A stretch of 49,651 nucleotides of DNA from a virus: the IMG/VR virus record IMGVR_UViG_3300045988_028961; one strand, given 5' to 3'. Below the pieces are notes generated by a model. That model saw only the letters and a list, made by a program, of their open reading frames with translations, made no database searches and was not told the origin of the DNA. A program made the position numbers and the translations under genes. Shown here one piece after another: positions 4,134 through 38,650 of this stretch (its first letter is position 1; each line of letters begins with the position of its first letter).

Positions 4134-4676
4134 GTGTTACTTCTACTTGCGGCGGCATTGCTCGTGCTGACCGGTTTTTTTGCAAAGGAGCCAGAGCGGG
4201 AAGAACGCACGATCCTGGTGATCGAGGGCGGCCCGCACGAAGAAGCATACGAAGACCCCGACGAAGCGGAGAAGAGCGCGGAGGCGGTAATTGCCGCCAT
4301 CGGAACAGACCGCGAGATTGAGACCTTCGGCTACAACGTGACAAAGGTACTTCAGACCGTCACAGCAGAGGCGGGAAACGACACCGACCAGTGCCGTGGA
4401 ATTGTACAAGCCTTATTCAACGCCTGCAACCGCCACAGGAACCGCTACACGCCGGAGGACGTATGCAGGGAGTATCAGTATACTACCCCGGCAAGCTGGG
4501 TGTCTGACGCGGCATTAAATGCCTTTTGTAAGGTGTTTGTATACGGCGATATGTTTACCGACATCGGCAATGCGACGGTGTTCTACAATCCACAGATAGC
4601 CGGACATAGCGAATATCACGAAGGGCAGATTTACGTTTGCAGCATTGGAGATGTGAAATACTTCGAGGAGGTTTGA
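4134..4676 (+). CDS. Membrane-anchored protein, possible SleB-like cell-wall hydrolase domain
   Basis: N-terminal hydrophobic helix LLLLAAALLVLTGFF. The C-terminal pattern AEAGN...ALFNACNR...ATVFYNP...IG..KYF resembles the Hydrolase_2/SleB family, judged from memory only. GTG start. Confidence 0.4.
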   Translation: MLLLLAAALLVLTGFFAKEPEREERTILVIEGGPHEEAYEDPDEAEKSAEAVIAAIGTDREIETFGYNVTKVLQTVTAEAGNDTDQCRGIVQALFNACNRHRNRYTPEDVCREYQYTTPASWVSDAALNAFCKVFVYGDMFTDIGNATVFYNPQIAGHSEYHEGQIYVCSIGDVKYFEEV

Positions 4677-4754
4677 AAAGTTCTAAATTAGAATAACTAC
4701 TTTAGAAAATCCGCGTTTTTGCACTATGAACGTTGCGAAAAGTGTGGTACAATA

Positions 4755-5535
4755 GTCATGGGGACGTGCATACCCCATGACACCTCCTATTCATCATCTT
4801 GCTTGCATTCATTTTTCATTCTCCTTTCTGTGGACCGTCGTTGCACGGCGGCGGGCACACACGGCATTGTAGCTCAATGGGGAAGAGCGCACGGCGGGGA
4901 AACGCCGTCGATGGTCGTTGCAGGTTCGAGTCCTGCCAATGCCTCAATACCGGCTTTCACGGTATCGTTTTCCTTTCGACCGCTTACCCGCCAGCGGTAT
5001 ATGACGGGTATCTGCCGGACTGCGTGAGCTACCCCACGATCAGGGGCGAGAGGTCGCACCTCCCATCCGGCACCAAGGAGTGAAGCTTGACAGGAAACGG
5101 TGGAGTGTGCCGACACTTAGAAAACGGCTGGGCAATGCGGAGCCTGTAGAGACGGAAACCGCGACGAAAAAAGTGGTGCGGCACTACCGTGGGCAAGTGG
5201 CATAGCGTCCCGTCTGAAAGTGTGCCAGAACATTGAAGCGGCAGGCGCTCCGCCATGCGTTTGCCGTGAAGTTCCGAAGGGTTGTGCGTATTCCTCAAGG
5301 CGGATAGGCGAGAGCCGAAAGAAAACGCACCATTGCCGCTTTATCCGTGTATTGAGCGGCTAAAAATAACACGGTTGCCAATAGACGTGCCGCCCGTCCG
5401 GCGTAAAAGGCGGCTTGCACAGCATATCAGGGATAGCCCGACGGGGTGAAAAGCGGCCATTTCCTGCCTTTTGGCCGCTTCCCTGAATATAAAAAAGGCA
5501 GCATAACGATGTTCACACTTTAAATTTTTATATAA
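4755..5535 (+). ncRNA. Candidate large structured non-coding RNA (ROOL/GOLLD-class context); boundaries approximate
   Basis: ~0.86 kb without a credible ORF in a tightly packed genome. Extended -10 TGgTACAAT at 4745-4753. Many GC helices with GAAA-type loops and long-range complementarity (5131-5143 with 5247-5265). Contains a tRNA-like element. Confidence 0.45.
4863..4944 (+). tRNA. tRNA-like element with a non-canonical anticodon arm (identity undetermined)
   Basis: 7-bp acceptor GGCATTG/CAATGCC. D arm GCTC-AATGGGGAA-GAGC. T arm GCAGG-TTCGAGT-CCTGC. The anticodon position is a 6-bp stem ACGGCG/CGCCGT closed by a GGGAAA hexaloop (no U33, no 7-nt loop). 11-nt variable region. Confidence 0.45.
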
Positions 5536-5549
5536 AGGCAGGGATGCAC

Positions 5550-6311
5550 ATGAACGAACTGATGATTTTCAACAATCCGGAGTTTGGCGAGATTCGCACG
5601 ATGGAAGAGGACGGAGGCGTTCTTTTCTGCGGGAACGATGTTGCCAAAGCACTTGGTTACAAGAGCCCGAAAGATGCAGTTTCTACACACTGCCGTGGGG
5701 CGGTGAAACGCCGCCTCACCGATTCTTTGGGTAGAGAGCAAGATACGGCATTTATTCCCGAAAGCGATTTGTACAGGCTGGTGTTTAGTTCAAAGCTGCC
5801 AGCGGCGGAAAAGTTCACCGATTGGGTGACAAAGGATGTTTTGCCTACGATCCGCAAGACCGGCGGCTATTCGCTGCCGAAGGACTATCCTTCCGCGCTC
5901 CGTGCTCTGGCTGATGCAGAAGAAAAGCGCCTGGCACTCGTTGCGGAGAACGAACGCCAAGCGCAAATGATCGCAGAGTTTGAGCCTATCCGCCAGTATG
6001 TGGACACCATTCTGGAAAGCACGGACGCGCTGGCGACTTCTCAGATCGCCGCCGACTACGGCATGAGCGCCCAGCAGCTGAATAAGATCCTCCGTGACGA
6101 AGGAATCCAGCACAAGGTCAACGGCCAATGGCTGCTTTACAAGAAGCACATGAACAAGGGCTACACCAAGAGCAAGACGATCAAGTTCAATCACTCTGAC
6201 GGTAGGCCTGATACAAAGCTTTCCACCCAGTGGACACAAAAGGGCCGTTTGATGATTCACAACATTCTGGAGAGCCGTGGTGTCGTGGCGATGATGGATA
6301 GAGCGTCGTAA
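5550..6311 (+). CDS. Phage antirepressor (Bro-N plus KilAC-type domains)
   Basis: N-terminal FNNPEFGEIRT...GNDVAKALGY...DLYRLVFSSKLP...FTDWV is Bro-N-like. The C-terminal half resembles the KilAC/ANT type. ATG 5544 is an alternative start. Confidence 0.8.
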   Translation: MNELMIFNNPEFGEIRTMEEDGGVLFCGNDVAKALGYKSPKDAVSTHCRGAVKRRLTDSLGREQDTAFIPESDLYRLVFSSKLPAAEKFTDWVTKDVLPTIRKTGGYSLPKDYPSALRALADAEEKRLALVAENERQAQMIAEFEPIRQYVDTILESTDALATSQIAADYGMSAQQLNKILRDEGIQHKVNGQWLLYKKHMNKGYTKSKTIKFNHSDGRPDTKLSTQWTQKGRLMIHNILESRGVVAMMDRAS

Positions 6312-10280: not shown

Positions 10281-10371
10281 TGGGTTATCCTTGGGAAGAA
10301 AGCCACGGTTCGCTTTGGATAAACATCGGGACTGCTGAAAATCCAGATTGGGTGTTTTTGGGAGCCATAAA

Positions 10372-12036
10372 ATGAACAGATACCCGTTCGACCCCGCTAC
10401 TTTAGATGCGCTGCCGGAGGAACTGGCGGAGTTGTATCGCGGGCTGGAAGATACCCTGTTGATGGAGATATGCTCCCGGCTCAAGACTTCGGACGAGCTG
10501 AACGAGGTCACGGTGCAGGACATCAAGGCGCTTCGGGCGCACGGCATTGACCCGAAGGAGATCGAGAAAGCCATACGCAAGACCACGGGCATCAGTGAGC
10601 AGAAGCTCAAGAAGTTGCTGGACGATGTAGTGGCACGGAATCAGGCGTATTACACCGAGCTTATTACGTTGGCGGATGTGACGCGGCCTGACGTGCTGGT
10701 GGACGCGGCGGCTATTGCGGCGATCTACGCACAGACAAAGCAAGAGTGCCGGAACATCACCCGCAGCATGGGCTTTTTGGTGGACAATGGCCGGACGATG
10801 CTGCCGCCTGCCAAAGCGTACCAATGGTGCTGCGATTCCGCGCTTATGCAGGTGCAGAGCGGCGCGATTTCCTACAATCAGGCGATATCCAATGCCGTGA
10901 AGCAGCTGGCGGACAGCGGCTTGAAAACGGTGGACTACGAGAGTGGGCACCGGGATCAGGTAGACGTGGCGGCGAGACGGGCCGTTATGTCTGGCGTGAA
11001 CGCTCTCAATCAAAAGTATGCGGAGCAATCTGCCGAATATCTGGAGACCGATCTTGTGGAAGTAAGCGCTCATATCGGGGCGCGAAACACGGGAAACGGG
11101 CTGGAAAACCATGAGAGTTGGCAAGGCGGCGTGTATCGGTGGGCTGAGAAACCCGGAGATTCAAAGGGCGAGTACAAGGATTTTGTTGCTACCACCGGAT
11201 ACGGCCAGGGCGCTGGTCTGGGCGGATGGAACTGCCGACACACCTTTTATCCGTTTGTGGAGGGCATCAGTGAGCCGACCTATTCACAGGCCGACCTTGA
11301 CGCCATGAAGGGCGAGAACCGCAAGTTTGTGTTTGATGGCAAGGAGTACGACGGGTACACAGCCACGCAAATGCAGCGCAGCATAGAGCACCAGATACGC
11401 AAGCAGAAGCGCCTTAGAGACGCTTACAAGGCCGCTGGGCTGAAAGATGACGAGACCGCCGCCAACATCAAGCTGCGCCGCCTGAACGCCAAATACAAGG
11501 AATTCAGCAAGGCGGCGGGGCTGCCGGAACAACCGGAGCGGTTGAAGGTGCTTTATGGCGATACAAAAAGCACTGCCGCCGCTCAAGCGCTTAAGGCGCA
11601 GCGGCAAGCAGAAGCCGCACAGGCAGCGTTGCAAAACGAAAAGAATATCGCTATACTGAAAGAGAAGATCGCCAACGGCGAGATATCCACAGCAATCAGG
11701 CCACAGGTGCAAGCACGCCATATCGAAGGAACGGCGGAGTTTGAGCGGTATAAGGCGCAAAGACTTGCAAAGGGTAAGACTCCGCAAAGCATCTTAACGA
11801 TCACCGTAAAGGAAGCACAAGAAATCGTTGATAAATACGCCTGCACGGGAACTGTGACCATTAAGACGCCGAAAGACGCCCCAATAGAAATCAGAGAGTA
11901 TAGGAACGTGGATAAGGTGATCGGGCAATACTACAAAAACAATGCTTTCCACAGCACAAAACGCGCCATAATTGTGTACGCAAAAAAGGGGACACACATC
12001 GTTCCGACGATTCCAAAGGAGGATCAACATGGTTAA
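10372..12036 (+). CDS. MuF / SPP1 gp7-like head morphogenesis protein with a C-terminal toxin-like extension
   Basis: Follows the portal. The central region ...GGWNCRHTFYPF... is typical of the Mu F / minor capsid family. A coiled-coil linker leads to a ~115-aa extra domain ending ...YAKKGTHIVPTIP. TTG 10348 is an alternative start. Confidence 0.8.
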   Translation: MNRYPFDPATLDALPEELAELYRGLEDTLLMEICSRLKTSDELNEVTVQDIKALRAHGIDPKEIEKAIRKTTGISEQKLKKLLDDVVARNQAYYTELITLADVTRPDVLVDAAAIAAIYAQTKQECRNITRSMGFLVDNGRTMLPPAKAYQWCCDSALMQVQSGAISYNQAISNAVKQLADSGLKTVDYESGHRDQVDVAARRAVMSGVNALNQKYAEQSAEYLETDLVEVSAHIGARNTGNGLENHESWQGGVYRWAEKPGDSKGEYKDFVATTGYGQGAGLGGWNCRHTFYPFVEGISEPTYSQADLDAMKGENRKFVFDGKEYDGYTATQMQRSIEHQIRKQKRLRDAYKAAGLKDDETAANIKLRRLNAKYKEFSKAAGLPEQPERLKVLYGDTKSTAAAQALKAQRQAEAAQAALQNEKNIAILKEKIANGEISTAIRPQVQARHIEGTAEFERYKAQRLAKGKTPQSILTITVKEAQEIVDKYACTGTVTIKTPKDAPIEIREYRNVDKVIGQYYKNNAFHSTKRAIIVYAKKGTHIVPTIPKEDQHG

Positions 12037-12235
12037 TATTTGGGATTATGCCAATGAGCTGCCCCGCATAAAGCTTAAAGCGATAAACGGAGCTGAGCTT
12101 ATCGGGAATGTTGTTGCGGTTTTTGACGCTAACGAGATAGAAAGCGCACAGGACTGCATAGATGTTGAACTCGATAGCGGAGAAATCAAGTCCTTTTATC
12201 CGGACGATATTGAAAGCATTGAGGTGCTTGCATGA
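12029..12235 (+). CDS. hypothetical small acidic protein (candidate immunity partner of the MuF C-terminal domain)
   Basis: RBS AAGGAGG lies before ATG 12029. Overlaps the MuF stop. 68 aa. Confidence 0.5.
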   Translation: MVNIWDYANELPRIKLKAINGAELIGNVVAVFDANEIESAQDCIDVELDSGEIKSFYPDDIESIEVLA

Positions 12236-12399
12236 GCGAAAACGCGGTGTTGAGCGCAAATAGTGACATTTTGCAGGCTATCAACAGCGTTTTGAAGAAA
12301 GGCGACCGGGTGGAATTGATCCCCACCAAAGACGAGGTGCGGGTGATACATATCCGGCGCGAGAATGTGGACGTGAACAAAGGCAAAACGAAGCAATAA
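12232..12399 (+). CDS. hypothetical small protein (55 aa; not in the supplied ORF track)
   Basis: ATGA overlap with the previous stop. Reads MSENAVLSANSDILQAINSVLKKGDRVELIPTKDEVRVIHIRRENVDVNKGKTKQ*. Confidence 0.45.
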   Translation: MSENAVLSANSDILQAINSVLKKGDRVELIPTKDEVRVIHIRRENVDVNKGKTKQ

Positions 12400-12403
12400 G
12401 CGC

Positions 12404-12432
12404 TTGCCATCGGTTGCGTGGTATGGTATAAT
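12404..12432 (+). promoter_or_regulatory. Near-consensus sigma70-type promoter
   Basis: TTGCCA (12404-12409), a 17-nt spacer, then TATAAT (12427-12432), preceded by TGg (extended -10). Confidence 0.6.
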
Positions 12433-12438
12433 AAATCA

Positions 12439-12537
12439 AACAAATATTCGACCTCGCTCTAAGCGGTGAGTGAGAAGAGCCGAGAGGGGCTAACTGACTA
12501 CAGTTTGTAGTTGGTTAGCCCCTCTTTCTTTTTTTCA
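12439..12537 (+). ncRNA. Candidate ~100-nt small RNA (orphan promoter-to-terminator unit)
   Basis: Lies between the promoter at 12404-12432 and the intrinsic terminator at 12482-12537. No ATG-initiated ORF and no RBS. Confidence 0.4.
12482..12537 (+). terminator. Rho-independent terminator
   Basis: Long stem GAGGGGCTAAC...GTTAGCCCCTC with inner ACTACA/TGTAGT pairing, followed by TTTCTTTTTTT. Confidence 0.7.
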
Positions 12538-36577: not shown

Positions 36578-37681
36578 CTATTTTGCCTTTGTTTGTAACG
36601 TGTTAGTAACCGCACTGACCAGCGTTTCTGCGTCAATGTGCGTGTAAACGTCGGCAGTTGTGGCATAATTGGCATGACCGAGAATTTTTTGCAGATATTC
36701 AGGGGCAAGACCTTCTTTGACCGCGCGGGTGGCGTAAGTGTGCCGCGTGGCATGGGGGGTCTTTTTTTCTATTTTGAGCCTTTCCAACAGGGAGTAATAT
36801 TCCCGCCTGCGGAAGTTGGCAGGGACTTTTTGACCATCATATCCTGAAATTAGCAAACTGCCGTTTGCTTTTTTTGCAAAGTATGCAAAATACTCCTGGC
36901 CTTCTGGCCGGATAGGGATAATGCGGTTTTTGCCTGCTTCTGTCTTTTCACCGCCGACCACATAATCCCCGTGATAATCTTTCAGTGGTAGGGTGAACAA
37001 TTCACCGATGCGCATACCGGTGGCAAGAAGCATAAGGATGATCTTGGCGGTGTCGCTGCCGTCCTTTTCTAGCTTTTTAATCTCGGCGGCGGTAAACACG
37101 TCTTTTTCTTTCTTGACGTTTTCCGGAAGCTTTACAAAGCGGGCAAAGTTGGTGGTGCAAATTTCCTCTCGCACGGCCCATGTGGACATCTGGGTAATAA
37201 GCTGCTTGTACTTGTTTACCGTGGAGTGGCTTTTGCTCATGTGCTGGTCGATCACCGATTGGAAGTCATCGGTGCGCAGGCTGCGAAATTTCTTATCGTG
37301 CAGTGGCTGAAAGATCACATAAGCGCGTTCGTAGGTCTCGATGCCCTTCTCTCCGATCTCGCGGTAATGCTCCGCTTTCCACTCGGTAAAAACTTCCGAG
37401 AAGGTCATGTTGTACCGTTCGTCCAAATCCTTGCCGGAAAGCTTCTCTAAGGCCGCCAGCGCGTCCGTTTTCTTCTCGTAGTATCCGACAATGACCTTGT
37501 TCTTCGCGGCCACCCACGGCCTTGTACGGCGGCCTGAAAGCTTATAAACGGTTCCGGCTCCGTTGGGACGCTTCAACGCTTTGCGGGGCGCTGCGGCCTG
37601 TCTCTTTCCACACCACGGGCAAAACGTTGCATTGGCGGGAACTTCTCTCTTACAGCTCTTACATTTCGTTGACTTTTCCAT
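36578..37681 (-). CDS. int: Tyrosine integrase with an N-terminal zinc ribbon
   Basis: CKSCK...CPWCG N-terminus. C-terminal catalytic region ...HATRHTYATRAV...LGHANYATTADVYTH. Confidence 0.9.
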   Translation of the reverse strand: MEKSTKCKSCKREVPANATFCPWCGKRQAAAPRKALKRPNGAGTVYKLSGRRTRPWVAAKNKVIVGYYEKKTDALAALEKLSGKDLDERYNMTFSEVFTEWKAEHYREIGEKGIETYERAYVIFQPLHDKKFRSLRTDDFQSVIDQHMSKSHSTVNKYKQLITQMSTWAVREEICTTNFARFVKLPENVKKEKDVFTAAEIKKLEKDGSDTAKIILMLLATGMRIGELFTLPLKDYHGDYVVGGEKTEAGKNRIIPIRPEGQEYFAYFAKKANGSLLISGYDGQKVPANFRRREYYSLLERLKIEKKTPHATRHTYATRAVKEGLAPEYLQKILGHANYATTADVYTHIDAETLVSAVTNTLQTKAK

Positions 37682-38346: not shown

Positions 38347-38621
38347 TTCCTGCTCCTCTACCCATTGTTGGGTAGGAAATACCCGAATGTCGGTATGTCT
38401 AGTTTTGTCGAATACCCATCTTCGGCATTGACCTACCCAACCTATTTTTGCTACGCTCTCATTGCGCGGCGGGCATGGTGGGTGTCCGTCGGGAAAAGCC
38501 CTCCGCCGTTGTTGCGGAGACGGCGGAGGGCTTACACAGGCCAGTTATAATGATGGGACATGGGCGGAACGCCTCCCTTGACGTTAGTGGTCTTTCCCTA
38601 AAATTATACCACATCTAGCGG

Positions 38622-38650
38622 TTGCAAAACAGTTAAGGTTGTGTTACAAT
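38622..38650 (+). promoter_or_regulatory. Sigma70-type promoter (plus strand) inside the minus-strand lysogeny island
   Basis: TTGCAA (38622-38627), a 17-nt spacer, then TGtTACAAT (extended -10; TACAAT at 38645-38650). Confidence 0.55.

Follow-up and report, generated by a model that had tools for sequence, protein, structure and literature searches.

A gene-free gap in a temperate gut phage genome carries a tRNA-like element and an orphan drum RNA

The viral sequence analysed here, IMG/VR record IMGVR_UViG_3300045988_028961, is a stretch of 49,651 nucleotides (nt), referred to below as the window, and belongs to a temperate, siphovirus-like gut phage. A gap of 867 nt (4677-5543) separates two of its + strand genes, one encoding a protein of 180 amino acids (4134-4676) and the other, ant, an antirepressor with Bro-N/KilAC domains (5544-6311). 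We identify this gap with high confidence, as regards its identity and its modular architecture taken together, as a mosaic island of separable + strand non-coding RNA (ncRNA) modules. Two of these are central to what follows: a tRNA-like element with an aberrant anticodon arm, and a drum RNA that is not accompanied by a gene for PBECR4, the predicted endoribonuclease (endoRNase) encoded behind many other drum RNAs. On balance, the explanation we lean towards overall is an ncRNA island punctuated by a tRNA-like element, in which the orphan drum may serve to neutralise PBECR4.

The gap is non-coding and contains three Rfam families

An initial annotation of this DNA had described a gene-free gap of about 865 bp between two + strand genes and had dismissed the open reading frames (ORFs) within it as spurious. 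Both points hold. All four ORFs are mostly broken in relatives, through frame-shifting indels and stop codons: among 23 aligned sequences (the window and 22 relatives), ORF 4719-5027 is intact in four, ORFs 4799-5083 and 4874-5116 (minus strand) in one each, and ORF 5029-5298 (minus strand) in two. The neighbouring 180-amino-acid gene has a clear coding signature, its variable columns numbering 27 at the first, 19 at the second and 95 at the third codon position. A hidden gene is thus ruled out, since the gap ORFs are not kept among relatives, and the gap is non-coding. A blastn comparison of the gap with 50,697 phage records gave no match.

We scanned the whole window with Rfam 15 at curated thresholds and found three separate families inside the gap: tRNA, drum and int-alpA. 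An additional permissive scan of 4600-5620 (E<=10) revealed nothing credible beyond these three. Conserved spacers separate the tRNA-like element, drum and int-alpA from one another. The suggestion that the locus could be a new class of RNA does not stand, since drum and int-alpA belong to catalogued families, both described in 2017 (PMC5737381; Rfam RF02958 and RF02996).

Conserved modules are gained and lost independently

To define the architecture of the island, we compared about 45 related phage and metagenome loci; 29 IMG/VR loci were reached via the upstream protein and 20 metagenome loci via a drum-specific pattern. The relatives share the block 4676-5333 with 83-93% identity; homology breaks off at 5333 in some of them and at 5416/5417 in others. 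The anticodon arm of the tRNA-like element and the hairpin that follows this element are swapped wholesale (pairwise differences of 0.40 and 0.43, respectively), and a 29-nt indel (5073-5101) corresponds to a segment nearly confined to the window. Each module is also found without the others in related or unrelated phages. This mosaic pattern of gain and loss argues against a single integrated fold of 0.86 kb.

The modules are nonetheless conserved. In an alignment of 28 sequences (the window and 27 relatives), invariant columns made up 71% of 4676-4754, 92% of 4837-4862, 74% of 4966-5072, 75% of 5102-5161, 76% of 5162-5227 and 74% of drum, compared to 40% of the third codon positions of the 180-amino-acid gene. 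Most blocks thus evolve more slowly than the third codon positions of their neighbour, which indicates that the island is functional sequence.

The tRNA-like element has a conserved body and a hypervariable anticodon arm

The embedded tRNA-like module predicted initially is borne out. Positions 4863-4944 (+) score 45.5 bits with the Rfam tRNA model (threshold 29), and ARAGORN reports a 'tRNA-???' with an 8-nt loop 'ggaa'. The cloverleaf is the minimum free energy (MFE) fold of the element, with an intact acceptor stem, D-arm (GG in the D-loop) and T-arm (T-loop TTCGAGT). The anticodon arm of the window copy consists of a 6-bp GC stem and the loop GGGAAA; it has no U33, no 7-nt loop and no readable anticodon. 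The variable region carries a mini-hairpin, and the encoded CCA has been lost, the 3' end reading TCAA in the window vs. TCCA or GCCA in relatives.

Some relatives have a canonical 75-nt tRNA-Asn(GTT) with an encoded CCA in the same slot. Other versions are 84 nt long with an AAA triloop, have a GGAA tetraloop or mismatched stems, or have the arm deleted; the anticodon loops of these non-canonical versions measure 3, 4 or 6 nt and are GC-clamped. Across the slot variants the acceptor stem is nearly invariant and the D-stem almost invariant, and the T-stem shows a compensatory change from A-T to T-A. RNase P, RNase Z and the CCA-adding enzyme recognise the 'top half' of tRNA, and MALAT1 mascRNA is a precedent for the principle of tRNA-like processing. 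The parts of the tRNA read by processing enzymes (acceptor stem, D-stem and T-arm) are retained in the island, and it is the decoding arm that is hypervariable.

In this respect the element resembles the tRNA processing handles of tRNA-punctuated transcripts, such as phage tRNA arrays: the decoding part appears dispensable, and in other phages (L077, L060) drum lies inside a tRNA array, within 1-9 nt of the next true tRNA. The arrangement differs in that the window drum starts 283 nt downstream of the tRNA-like element, with a putative weak terminator between them, and cleavage at the element is predicted by analogy. The intervening feature, a short hairpin with a T-tract (4947-4975, +) identified by a terminator scan, is a candidate weak terminator or 3' processing site. 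Its sequence is nearly fully replaced in relatives, each time again by a small hairpin and T-tract, and it is deleted in four loci.

The leader at 4830-4845 resembles 4907-4922 of the anticodon/variable arm (GTGGACCGTCGTTGCA vs. GTCGATGGTCGTTGCA), and GCACGGCGG occurs at both 4847-4855 and 4889-4897. The presence of leader repeats in the aberrant arm suggests that the leader gave rise to it, through local duplication or gene conversion. We also considered the tRNA-like element as an attP core and rejected this possibility, the integrase gene being about 31 kb away.

The drum RNA of the window is full-length and orphan

The strongest match is drum RNA (RF02958) at 5228-5333 (+), which scores 78.1 bits (E 4e-13; the threshold is 43) and covers model positions 1-112 of 112. 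All four drum helices and all 21 base pairs are formed in the window copy, and the conserved unpaired core (GGGUUGUGCG..CCUCAA..CGGAUAGG..GAAAGAAAACGC) is present. When the Rfam structure was imposed on 20 sequences of the lineage, 97.4% of cells were paired, compared to 25-45% with the partners slid. A six-frame search of the whole 49.65-kb window and of the related loci L001-L030 found no PBECR4. The window copy thus resembles the published motif (RF02958, PMC5737381) in its full length, its four helices and its single-stranded core, and differs from it in the lack of a terminator, a canonical promoter and PBECR4, and in the possession of a lineage-specific 5' extension and a 65-nt insertion.

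The 5' extension (5104-5161, +) contains the hairpins AGTGT-gccg-ACACT (5104-5117) and GGCT...AGCC (5127-5145). In a second, otherwise unrelated lineage (viral loci L031, L032, L039 and L052; metagenome loci L196, L197, L205 and L207), 5105-5161 is joined directly to 5227-5330, with 91-93% identity. The mobile unit thus consists of drum and its 57-nt 5' extension, into which 5162-5226 has been inserted in the lineage of the window only. This 65-nt segment (+), missing from the L031/L052 lineage and 76% invariant in that of the window, repeats at its 3' end the sequence AGTGTGCC found at 5104.

Other phages with a window-type drum (L001, 5482-5557; L031, L032, L039, L052; L196, L197, L205-L207) have true tRNA genes about 70-440 nt after it, namely Thr-CGT; Trp, Thr and Thr; or Met and Gly. 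These phages share sequence around AATAGTCTGCC that is lacking in the window.

Drum RNAs elsewhere are associated with PBECR4

We scanned viral and genome collections with sequence patterns and, after filtering the hits by an nhmmer profile, obtained 87 distinct drum loci. In 47-55 of the 87, drum is followed on the same strand by a gene for PBECR4 (PF18813, E 8e-41; about 200-226 amino acids), a proportion biased by this mode of collection. The start codon or ORF of PBECR4 typically lies 38-60 nt past drum, with ORF calls ranging from overlapping to >100 nt away. In the reverse search, all eight PBECR4 genes found by a protein pattern had a drum ending about 58 nt upstream, and no other protein was conserved beside PBECR4 in 22 distinct loci. 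PBECR4 is a predicted metal-independent endoRNase with a BECR fold (for Barnase-EndoU-ColicinE5/D-RelE; PMC5512222). Beyond Pfam, sequence searches of PADLOC, NCBIfam and the PDB returned nothing for it. The drum-PBECR4 modules are often beside terminase and portal genes, i.e. in prophages.

All 14 canonical loci inspected are laid out alike: a TTGACT-N17-TATAAT promoter is followed by a covarying 5' hairpin and a single copy of drum, after which come a strong intrinsic terminator, a ribosome-binding site and the start codon of PBECR4. The 5' hairpin lies between the promoter and the start of the Rfam model, and the terminator within about 10-40 nt of drum. These features agree with the main text of the 2017 study, which notes that drum is followed by a Rho-independent terminator and has a 'compelling association' with a nearby protein (PMC5737381). 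Our literature search found no paper assigning a function to drum, the 2017 study being judged without its supplement.

Orphan drums occur in several settings. Each of the 20 window-type drums from metagenomes is an orphan, with a tRNA or tRNA-like gene nearby. Stand-alone orphans, in the order gene, drum, terminator, are found in about seven viral contigs of about 90-230 kb, most of them 139-150 kb, and others lie in the tRNA arrays mentioned above. In large phages with such arrays, drum and skipping-rope RNAs are interleaved with tRNAs (L060, 6524-6616 and 10537-11432; L071, 4289-4397 and 6142-6233; L077, 2850-3610); L060 has two drum copies, and L077 a group I intron just after the array. 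Skipping-rope RNA is another protein-associated motif of the same 2017 study as drum, and it seems that phage tRNA arrays accumulate orphan RNA motifs of this protein-associated kind. It should be noted that drum is not generally linked to tRNAs: 3 of 85 loci had a tRNA within 1 kb, and such a link holds only for the window-type and tRNA-array copies.

Drum as a possible antidote to PBECR4

The canonical drum locus, with a promoter, a structured RNA, a terminator and an endoRNase gene but no protein antitoxin, is organised like the type III toxin-antitoxin systems (ToxIN, CptIN, TenpIN and AbiF-RCd22). The window does not have this layout, as it contains no such toxin gene. RCd22, the abiF-motif RNA, is another of the motifs of 2017 and a type III-like RNA antitoxin of AbiF (bioRxiv 10.1101/2025.04.15.648962). 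Phages can also carry such an RNA alone: PhiTE uses antitoxin mimicry by a pseudo-ToxI (PMC3475682), and the orphan drums described above are likewise carried without a toxin. By analogy with these systems we propose an antidote mechanism, which we regard as possible, although we would not give it even chances. The island would be transcribed from the extended -10 sequence at 4745, or by read-through from the upstream operon. Cleavage by RNase P and RNase Z at the tRNA-like element would free the downstream RNA from the mRNA, as for drum embedded in phage tRNA arrays. PBECR4, the predicted endoRNase with a BECR fold, would have drum as its RNA partner, a type III-like antitoxin or immunity factor, and the orphan copy, acting in trans, would serve as an antidote or decoy against the PBECR4 modules of the host's resident prophages.

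Several points weigh against this proposal. Drum is a single complex fold of about 110 nt and not a series of tandem repeats as in known type III antitoxins (there are no tandem repeats in 4600-5600), and PBECR4, with its BECR fold, is unrelated to ToxN or AbiF. PBECR4 toxicity, the binding and inhibition by drum, and mimicry are proposed by analogy, and the promoter, processing sites and RNA ends of the island are predicted from sequence. Of the PBECR4-linked drums sampled, even the closest shares only about 70% identity with that of the window, and no cognate target therefore emerges. The window drum lacks the canonical terminator, no terminator-like site being found by the terminator scan in 5333-5695, and the canonical drum promoter has been lost before it. 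Among the close relatives of the orphan lineage, covariation is too sparse to demonstrate selection on structure: two double-sided (compensatory) changes were counted, and 56 of 500 shuffles reached that number. Lastly, the gathering of drum loci by sequence pattern biases the proportions given for them.

Other elements of the island

At the 5' side, the extended -10 promoter-like sequence TGgTACAAT (4745-4753, +) reported initially was recovered by a pattern search. It has no good -35 and sits in the 4676-4754 block, with its 71% invariant columns. The pattern TGNTANAAT by itself is only mildly enriched (7 matches vs. 3.1 expected; 4 of 100 shuffles reach 7), and other matches lie at plausible promoters, at 12424 before a gut-2 RNA and as a divergent pair at 38603/38642. 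TGgTACAAT is a candidate start of the ncRNA transcription unit. Two nt after it begins a perfect 9-N9-9 inverted repeat, GTCATGGGG/CCCCATGAC (4755-4781), unique in the window. Its changes in relatives comprise one symmetric double change (G4761A + C4775T), wobble changes and one disruptive change (T4759C), and it may be either an operator over the start site or a 5' RNA hairpin.

The conserved block 4966-5072 (+) is found only in this phage lineage and has no Rfam match at E<=10. A stem (5014-5019/5066-5071) can be drawn around the hairpins 5032-5046 and 5050-5062, with a further hairpin (4979-4998) preceding it. We found no covariation in this block, and its MFE was not better than that of shuffles. 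Beyond drum, the spacer 5334-5417 (+) contains two hairpins (5336-5361 and 5389-5414), is present in some relatives only, and has an MFE z-score of -1.55.

The third Rfam family, int-alpA RNA (RF02996; 5426-5498, +), scores 38.2 bits, marginally above its threshold of 35.8. Its fold consists of an outer stem, CAGGGA/TCCCTG, around the hairpins CCC-GAC-GGG and AAGCGGCCA/TGGCCGCTT. An exact 25-nt stretch of the core (28 nt by blastn) recurs in seven other viral contigs, L183-L189, where the outer stem is replaced by the complementary AACAAACGGA/TCCGTTTGTT around an identical 28-nt core, as a comparison of the two versions showed. In L183 and L186, the two scanned with Rfam, the int-alpA copies score 53 bits. 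The score above threshold, the three-helix fold and the core shared with 53-bit phage copies whose outer stem fully covaries liken the window element to the known motif, and we treat it as a genuine and mobile member of this family; it differs in its marginal score and in its position between drum and the antirepressor gene instead of between integrase and alpA genes. The arrangement of drum with int-alpA recurs in L195; int-alpA is missing from most relatives and otherwise found in different phages. The idea that int-alpA travels with ant was rejected, the ant homologues of relatives having no such element.

In L183-L189 (e.g. L186, 4193-4259, minus strand), int-alpA stands directly after the stop codon of a MuF N-domain gene, and a gene is inserted downstream of it whose product begins MGAILNLTGKRFGSLTAV..WECKCDCGG and is HNH/homing-endonuclease-like. 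From its position in these sequences, int-alpA may mark the 5' side of mobile 'moron' genes.

The last part of the gap, the ant leader (5499-5543, +), has two AAAGGCAG Shine-Dalgarno-like boxes, each 8-9 nt before an ATG. The first ATG opens a 4-codon mini-ORF, ATGTTCACACTTTAA (5510-5524), which is bracketed by a 14-nt inverted repeat (5482-5495/5525-5538). Translational control of the antirepressor by mini-ORF and inverted repeat is possible; neither feature is conserved 5' of the ant homologues in relatives.

Genomic setting of the island

Upstream of the island, the phage encodes methyltransferases and a PAPS-reductase-like protein. Downstream the gene order is antirepressor, TerS, TerL, portal, MuF, scaffold and capsid, and the integrase gene lies at 36578-37681 on the minus strand. 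Directly 3' of the stop codon of the 180-amino-acid gene, in the region 4676-4705 of a highly conserved block, are an AT-rich palindrome, TTCTAAATTAGAA (4681-4693), and the sequence TTTAGAA (4699-4705). Most relatives have a partly disrupted version of the palindrome (TT to GT), and many relatives have about 553 nt inserted just 5' of it, at the junction between gene and island.

In the region 10348-12399, the MuF-like minor capsid protein (Phage_min_cap2, E 1e-91) has a C-terminal Ntox50 toxin domain (E 4e-16), which makes it a MuF polymorphic toxin, and its gene is followed by two small ORFs (about 12029-12235 and 12232-12399) that are candidates for immunity proteins. We considered whether drum could be the immunity factor for this toxin of the phage itself. 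This was rejected, as PBECR4 and Ntox50 have no profile similarity and small candidate immunity ORFs follow the toxin gene.

Further downstream (region 12404-12535), a promoter close to consensus (12404-12432; TTGCCA-N17-TATAAT, the TG extension included) precedes a gut-2 RNA (RF02990; 12450-12497, 47 bits). Overlapping the 3' hairpin of this RNA is the 5' arm of a strong intrinsic terminator: GAGGGGCTAAC (12484-12494) pairs with GTTAGCCCCTC (12514-12524), and a T-run follows. Placed just 5' of the scaffold gene (12626), gut-2 and its terminator resemble an attenuator acting on the late or structural operon. In a related phage, GP20-b RNA takes up a comparable position, 5' of structural genes (L183, 9045-9103). 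At 38603-38650, about 1 kb from the integrase gene, two extended -10 sites face opposite strands 30 nt apart (TGGTATAAT, minus; TGTTACAAT, plus), and are probably the promoters of the lysis-lysogeny switch.

Alternative readings of the locus

The alternative that survives best, although we think it unlikely, is decay: the tRNA-like element would be a dying tRNA-Asn gene and drum the remnant of a drum-PBECR4 cassette, both without function. The region is a recombination hotspot, and the anticodon arm of relatives gathers mismatches or is deleted, consistent with such a process, as are the loss of the encoded CCA from the window element and of the canonical promoter and terminator from the window drum. 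Genome loci with a visibly truncated PBECR4 behind an intact drum (e.g. L102) point the same way. However, drum and its flanks have 74-76% invariant columns, whereas the synonymous-like sites of the gene next to them have 40%; drum retains 97.4% of its pairs, with two compensatory changes, and the tRNA-like element has its own compensatory change in the T-stem and an acceptor stem nearly invariant across slot variants. At least four unrelated phage groups also have orphan drums, in some cases with a terminator of their own, and this recurrence weakens the case for relics.

A role as a cis-acting leader is less probable again. In this case drum, with or without int-alpA, would be an attenuator or riboswitch-like 5' untranslated region of PBECR4 in the canonical loci, or of ant here. 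Canonical drums do occupy the 5' region of PBECR4 and are separated from the gene by a terminator, an attenuator-like layout; in the window drum and int-alpA are 5' of ant on the same strand, and an AAGGG-like box closes the Rfam consensus of int-alpA. In relatives that carry the same drum, however, the sequence downstream is unrelated, and the ant homologues are 7-8 kb off, behind a small ORF. Drum and terminator occur without a downstream partner in large phages and tRNA arrays, and the window drum has no terminator following it. A riboswitch role was judged improbable by Weinberg et al. (PMC5737381).

We consider it very improbable that the gap encodes one ornate RNA of about 0.8 kb, ROOL/GOLLD-like or of a new class, with an embedded tRNA-like domain, as the initial annotation had proposed. 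What remains of that proposal is a non-coding, RNA-dense locus in a phage context with a tRNA-like module; the single 0.86-kb ornate RNA does not. Its size and its phage context beside tRNA-like sequence would fit, and tRNA genes are found near ROOL and GOLLD RNAs too. Blocks 4966-5072 and 5102-5227 are moreover as conserved as drum, and a composite RNA of about 370 nt (4966-5333) is possible in this lineage. Nevertheless, ROOL, GOLLD, raiA, OLE and HEARO gave no match in 4600-5620 even at E<=10, and the locus is a chain of independent small modules, which come and go separately, and not one fold of 500-800 nt. A hairpin and T-tract also stands between the tRNA-like element and the remainder.

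Folding energies and covariation lead to the same view. The short helices listed in the initial annotation are all present at the coordinates given there, but the folding energy of the DNA is within chance: MFE z-scores against dinucleotide shuffles were -0.67 for 4755-5500 (+), +0.96 for 4966-5227 and -1.45 for the minus strand. Of the individual elements, int-alpA (-3.0) was the only one to stand out, with -1.63 for the tRNA-like element and -1.65 for drum. RNAalifold showed no covariation across relatives that would tie the pieces of the gap together; for 4966-5227 (20 distinct sequences) it gave one double-sided change and several disruptive ones, providing no structural support. The long-range pairing proposed between 5131-5143 and 5247-5265 was likewise rejected: it competes with the P1 hairpin of the Rfam drum model and is not maintained among relatives, most of which weaken it (G5137 to A, with C5253 showing no compensating change). 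With an MFE no better than that of shuffles and covariation not found, one large structured RNA is largely refuted.

Finally, a DNA-level element (an operator cluster, packaging site or origin, conserved through protein-binding sites) is hardly tenable for the whole locus and plausible for 4676-4781 and 4966-5072 only: the putative transcription start is overlapped by a perfect 9-N9-9 inverted repeat, the block 4966-5072 shows sequence conservation and no covariation, and the island lies between replication/modification and packaging genes, but its strongest features are strand-specific matches to RNA covariance models and the island of relatives is 7-8 kb away from packaging genes.

Implications

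The proposal that the orphan drum is an antidote can be extended by analogy to a wider scenario, which we find doubtful as a whole. Drum would be the immunity or antitoxin RNA of PBECR4, a BECR-fold, possibly tRNA-cleaving RNase of abortive infection that is found mainly in Lachnospiraceae prophages and encoded next to their terminase genes. It would have been captured by rival phages without the toxin and expressed from tRNA or tRNA-like operons for maturation by RNase P and RNase Z, in combination with spare tRNAs or with tRNA look-alikes lacking an anticodon loop that could be cleaved, the whole forming a combined counter-defence island. If this were true, the window would represent a minimal version, with a nuclease-proof tRNA handle and an orphan drum.

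Since 2017, drum has counted as one of the 'sophisticated-looking' bacterial RNA motifs that lack a function, and the locus yields a testable hypothesis for it, in addition to the observation of tRNA bodies with scrambled anticodon arms. A hypervariable anticodon arm on a conserved tRNA body is a natural experiment that shows what in a phage tRNA remains important where decoding is not. If the proposed function is correct, drum-PBECR4 would represent a new family of type III-like toxin-antitoxin or abortive-infection systems, one whose RNA is not made of repeats, and orphan drums would constitute a natural and widespread form of RNA-based anti-defence mimicry in gut phages.

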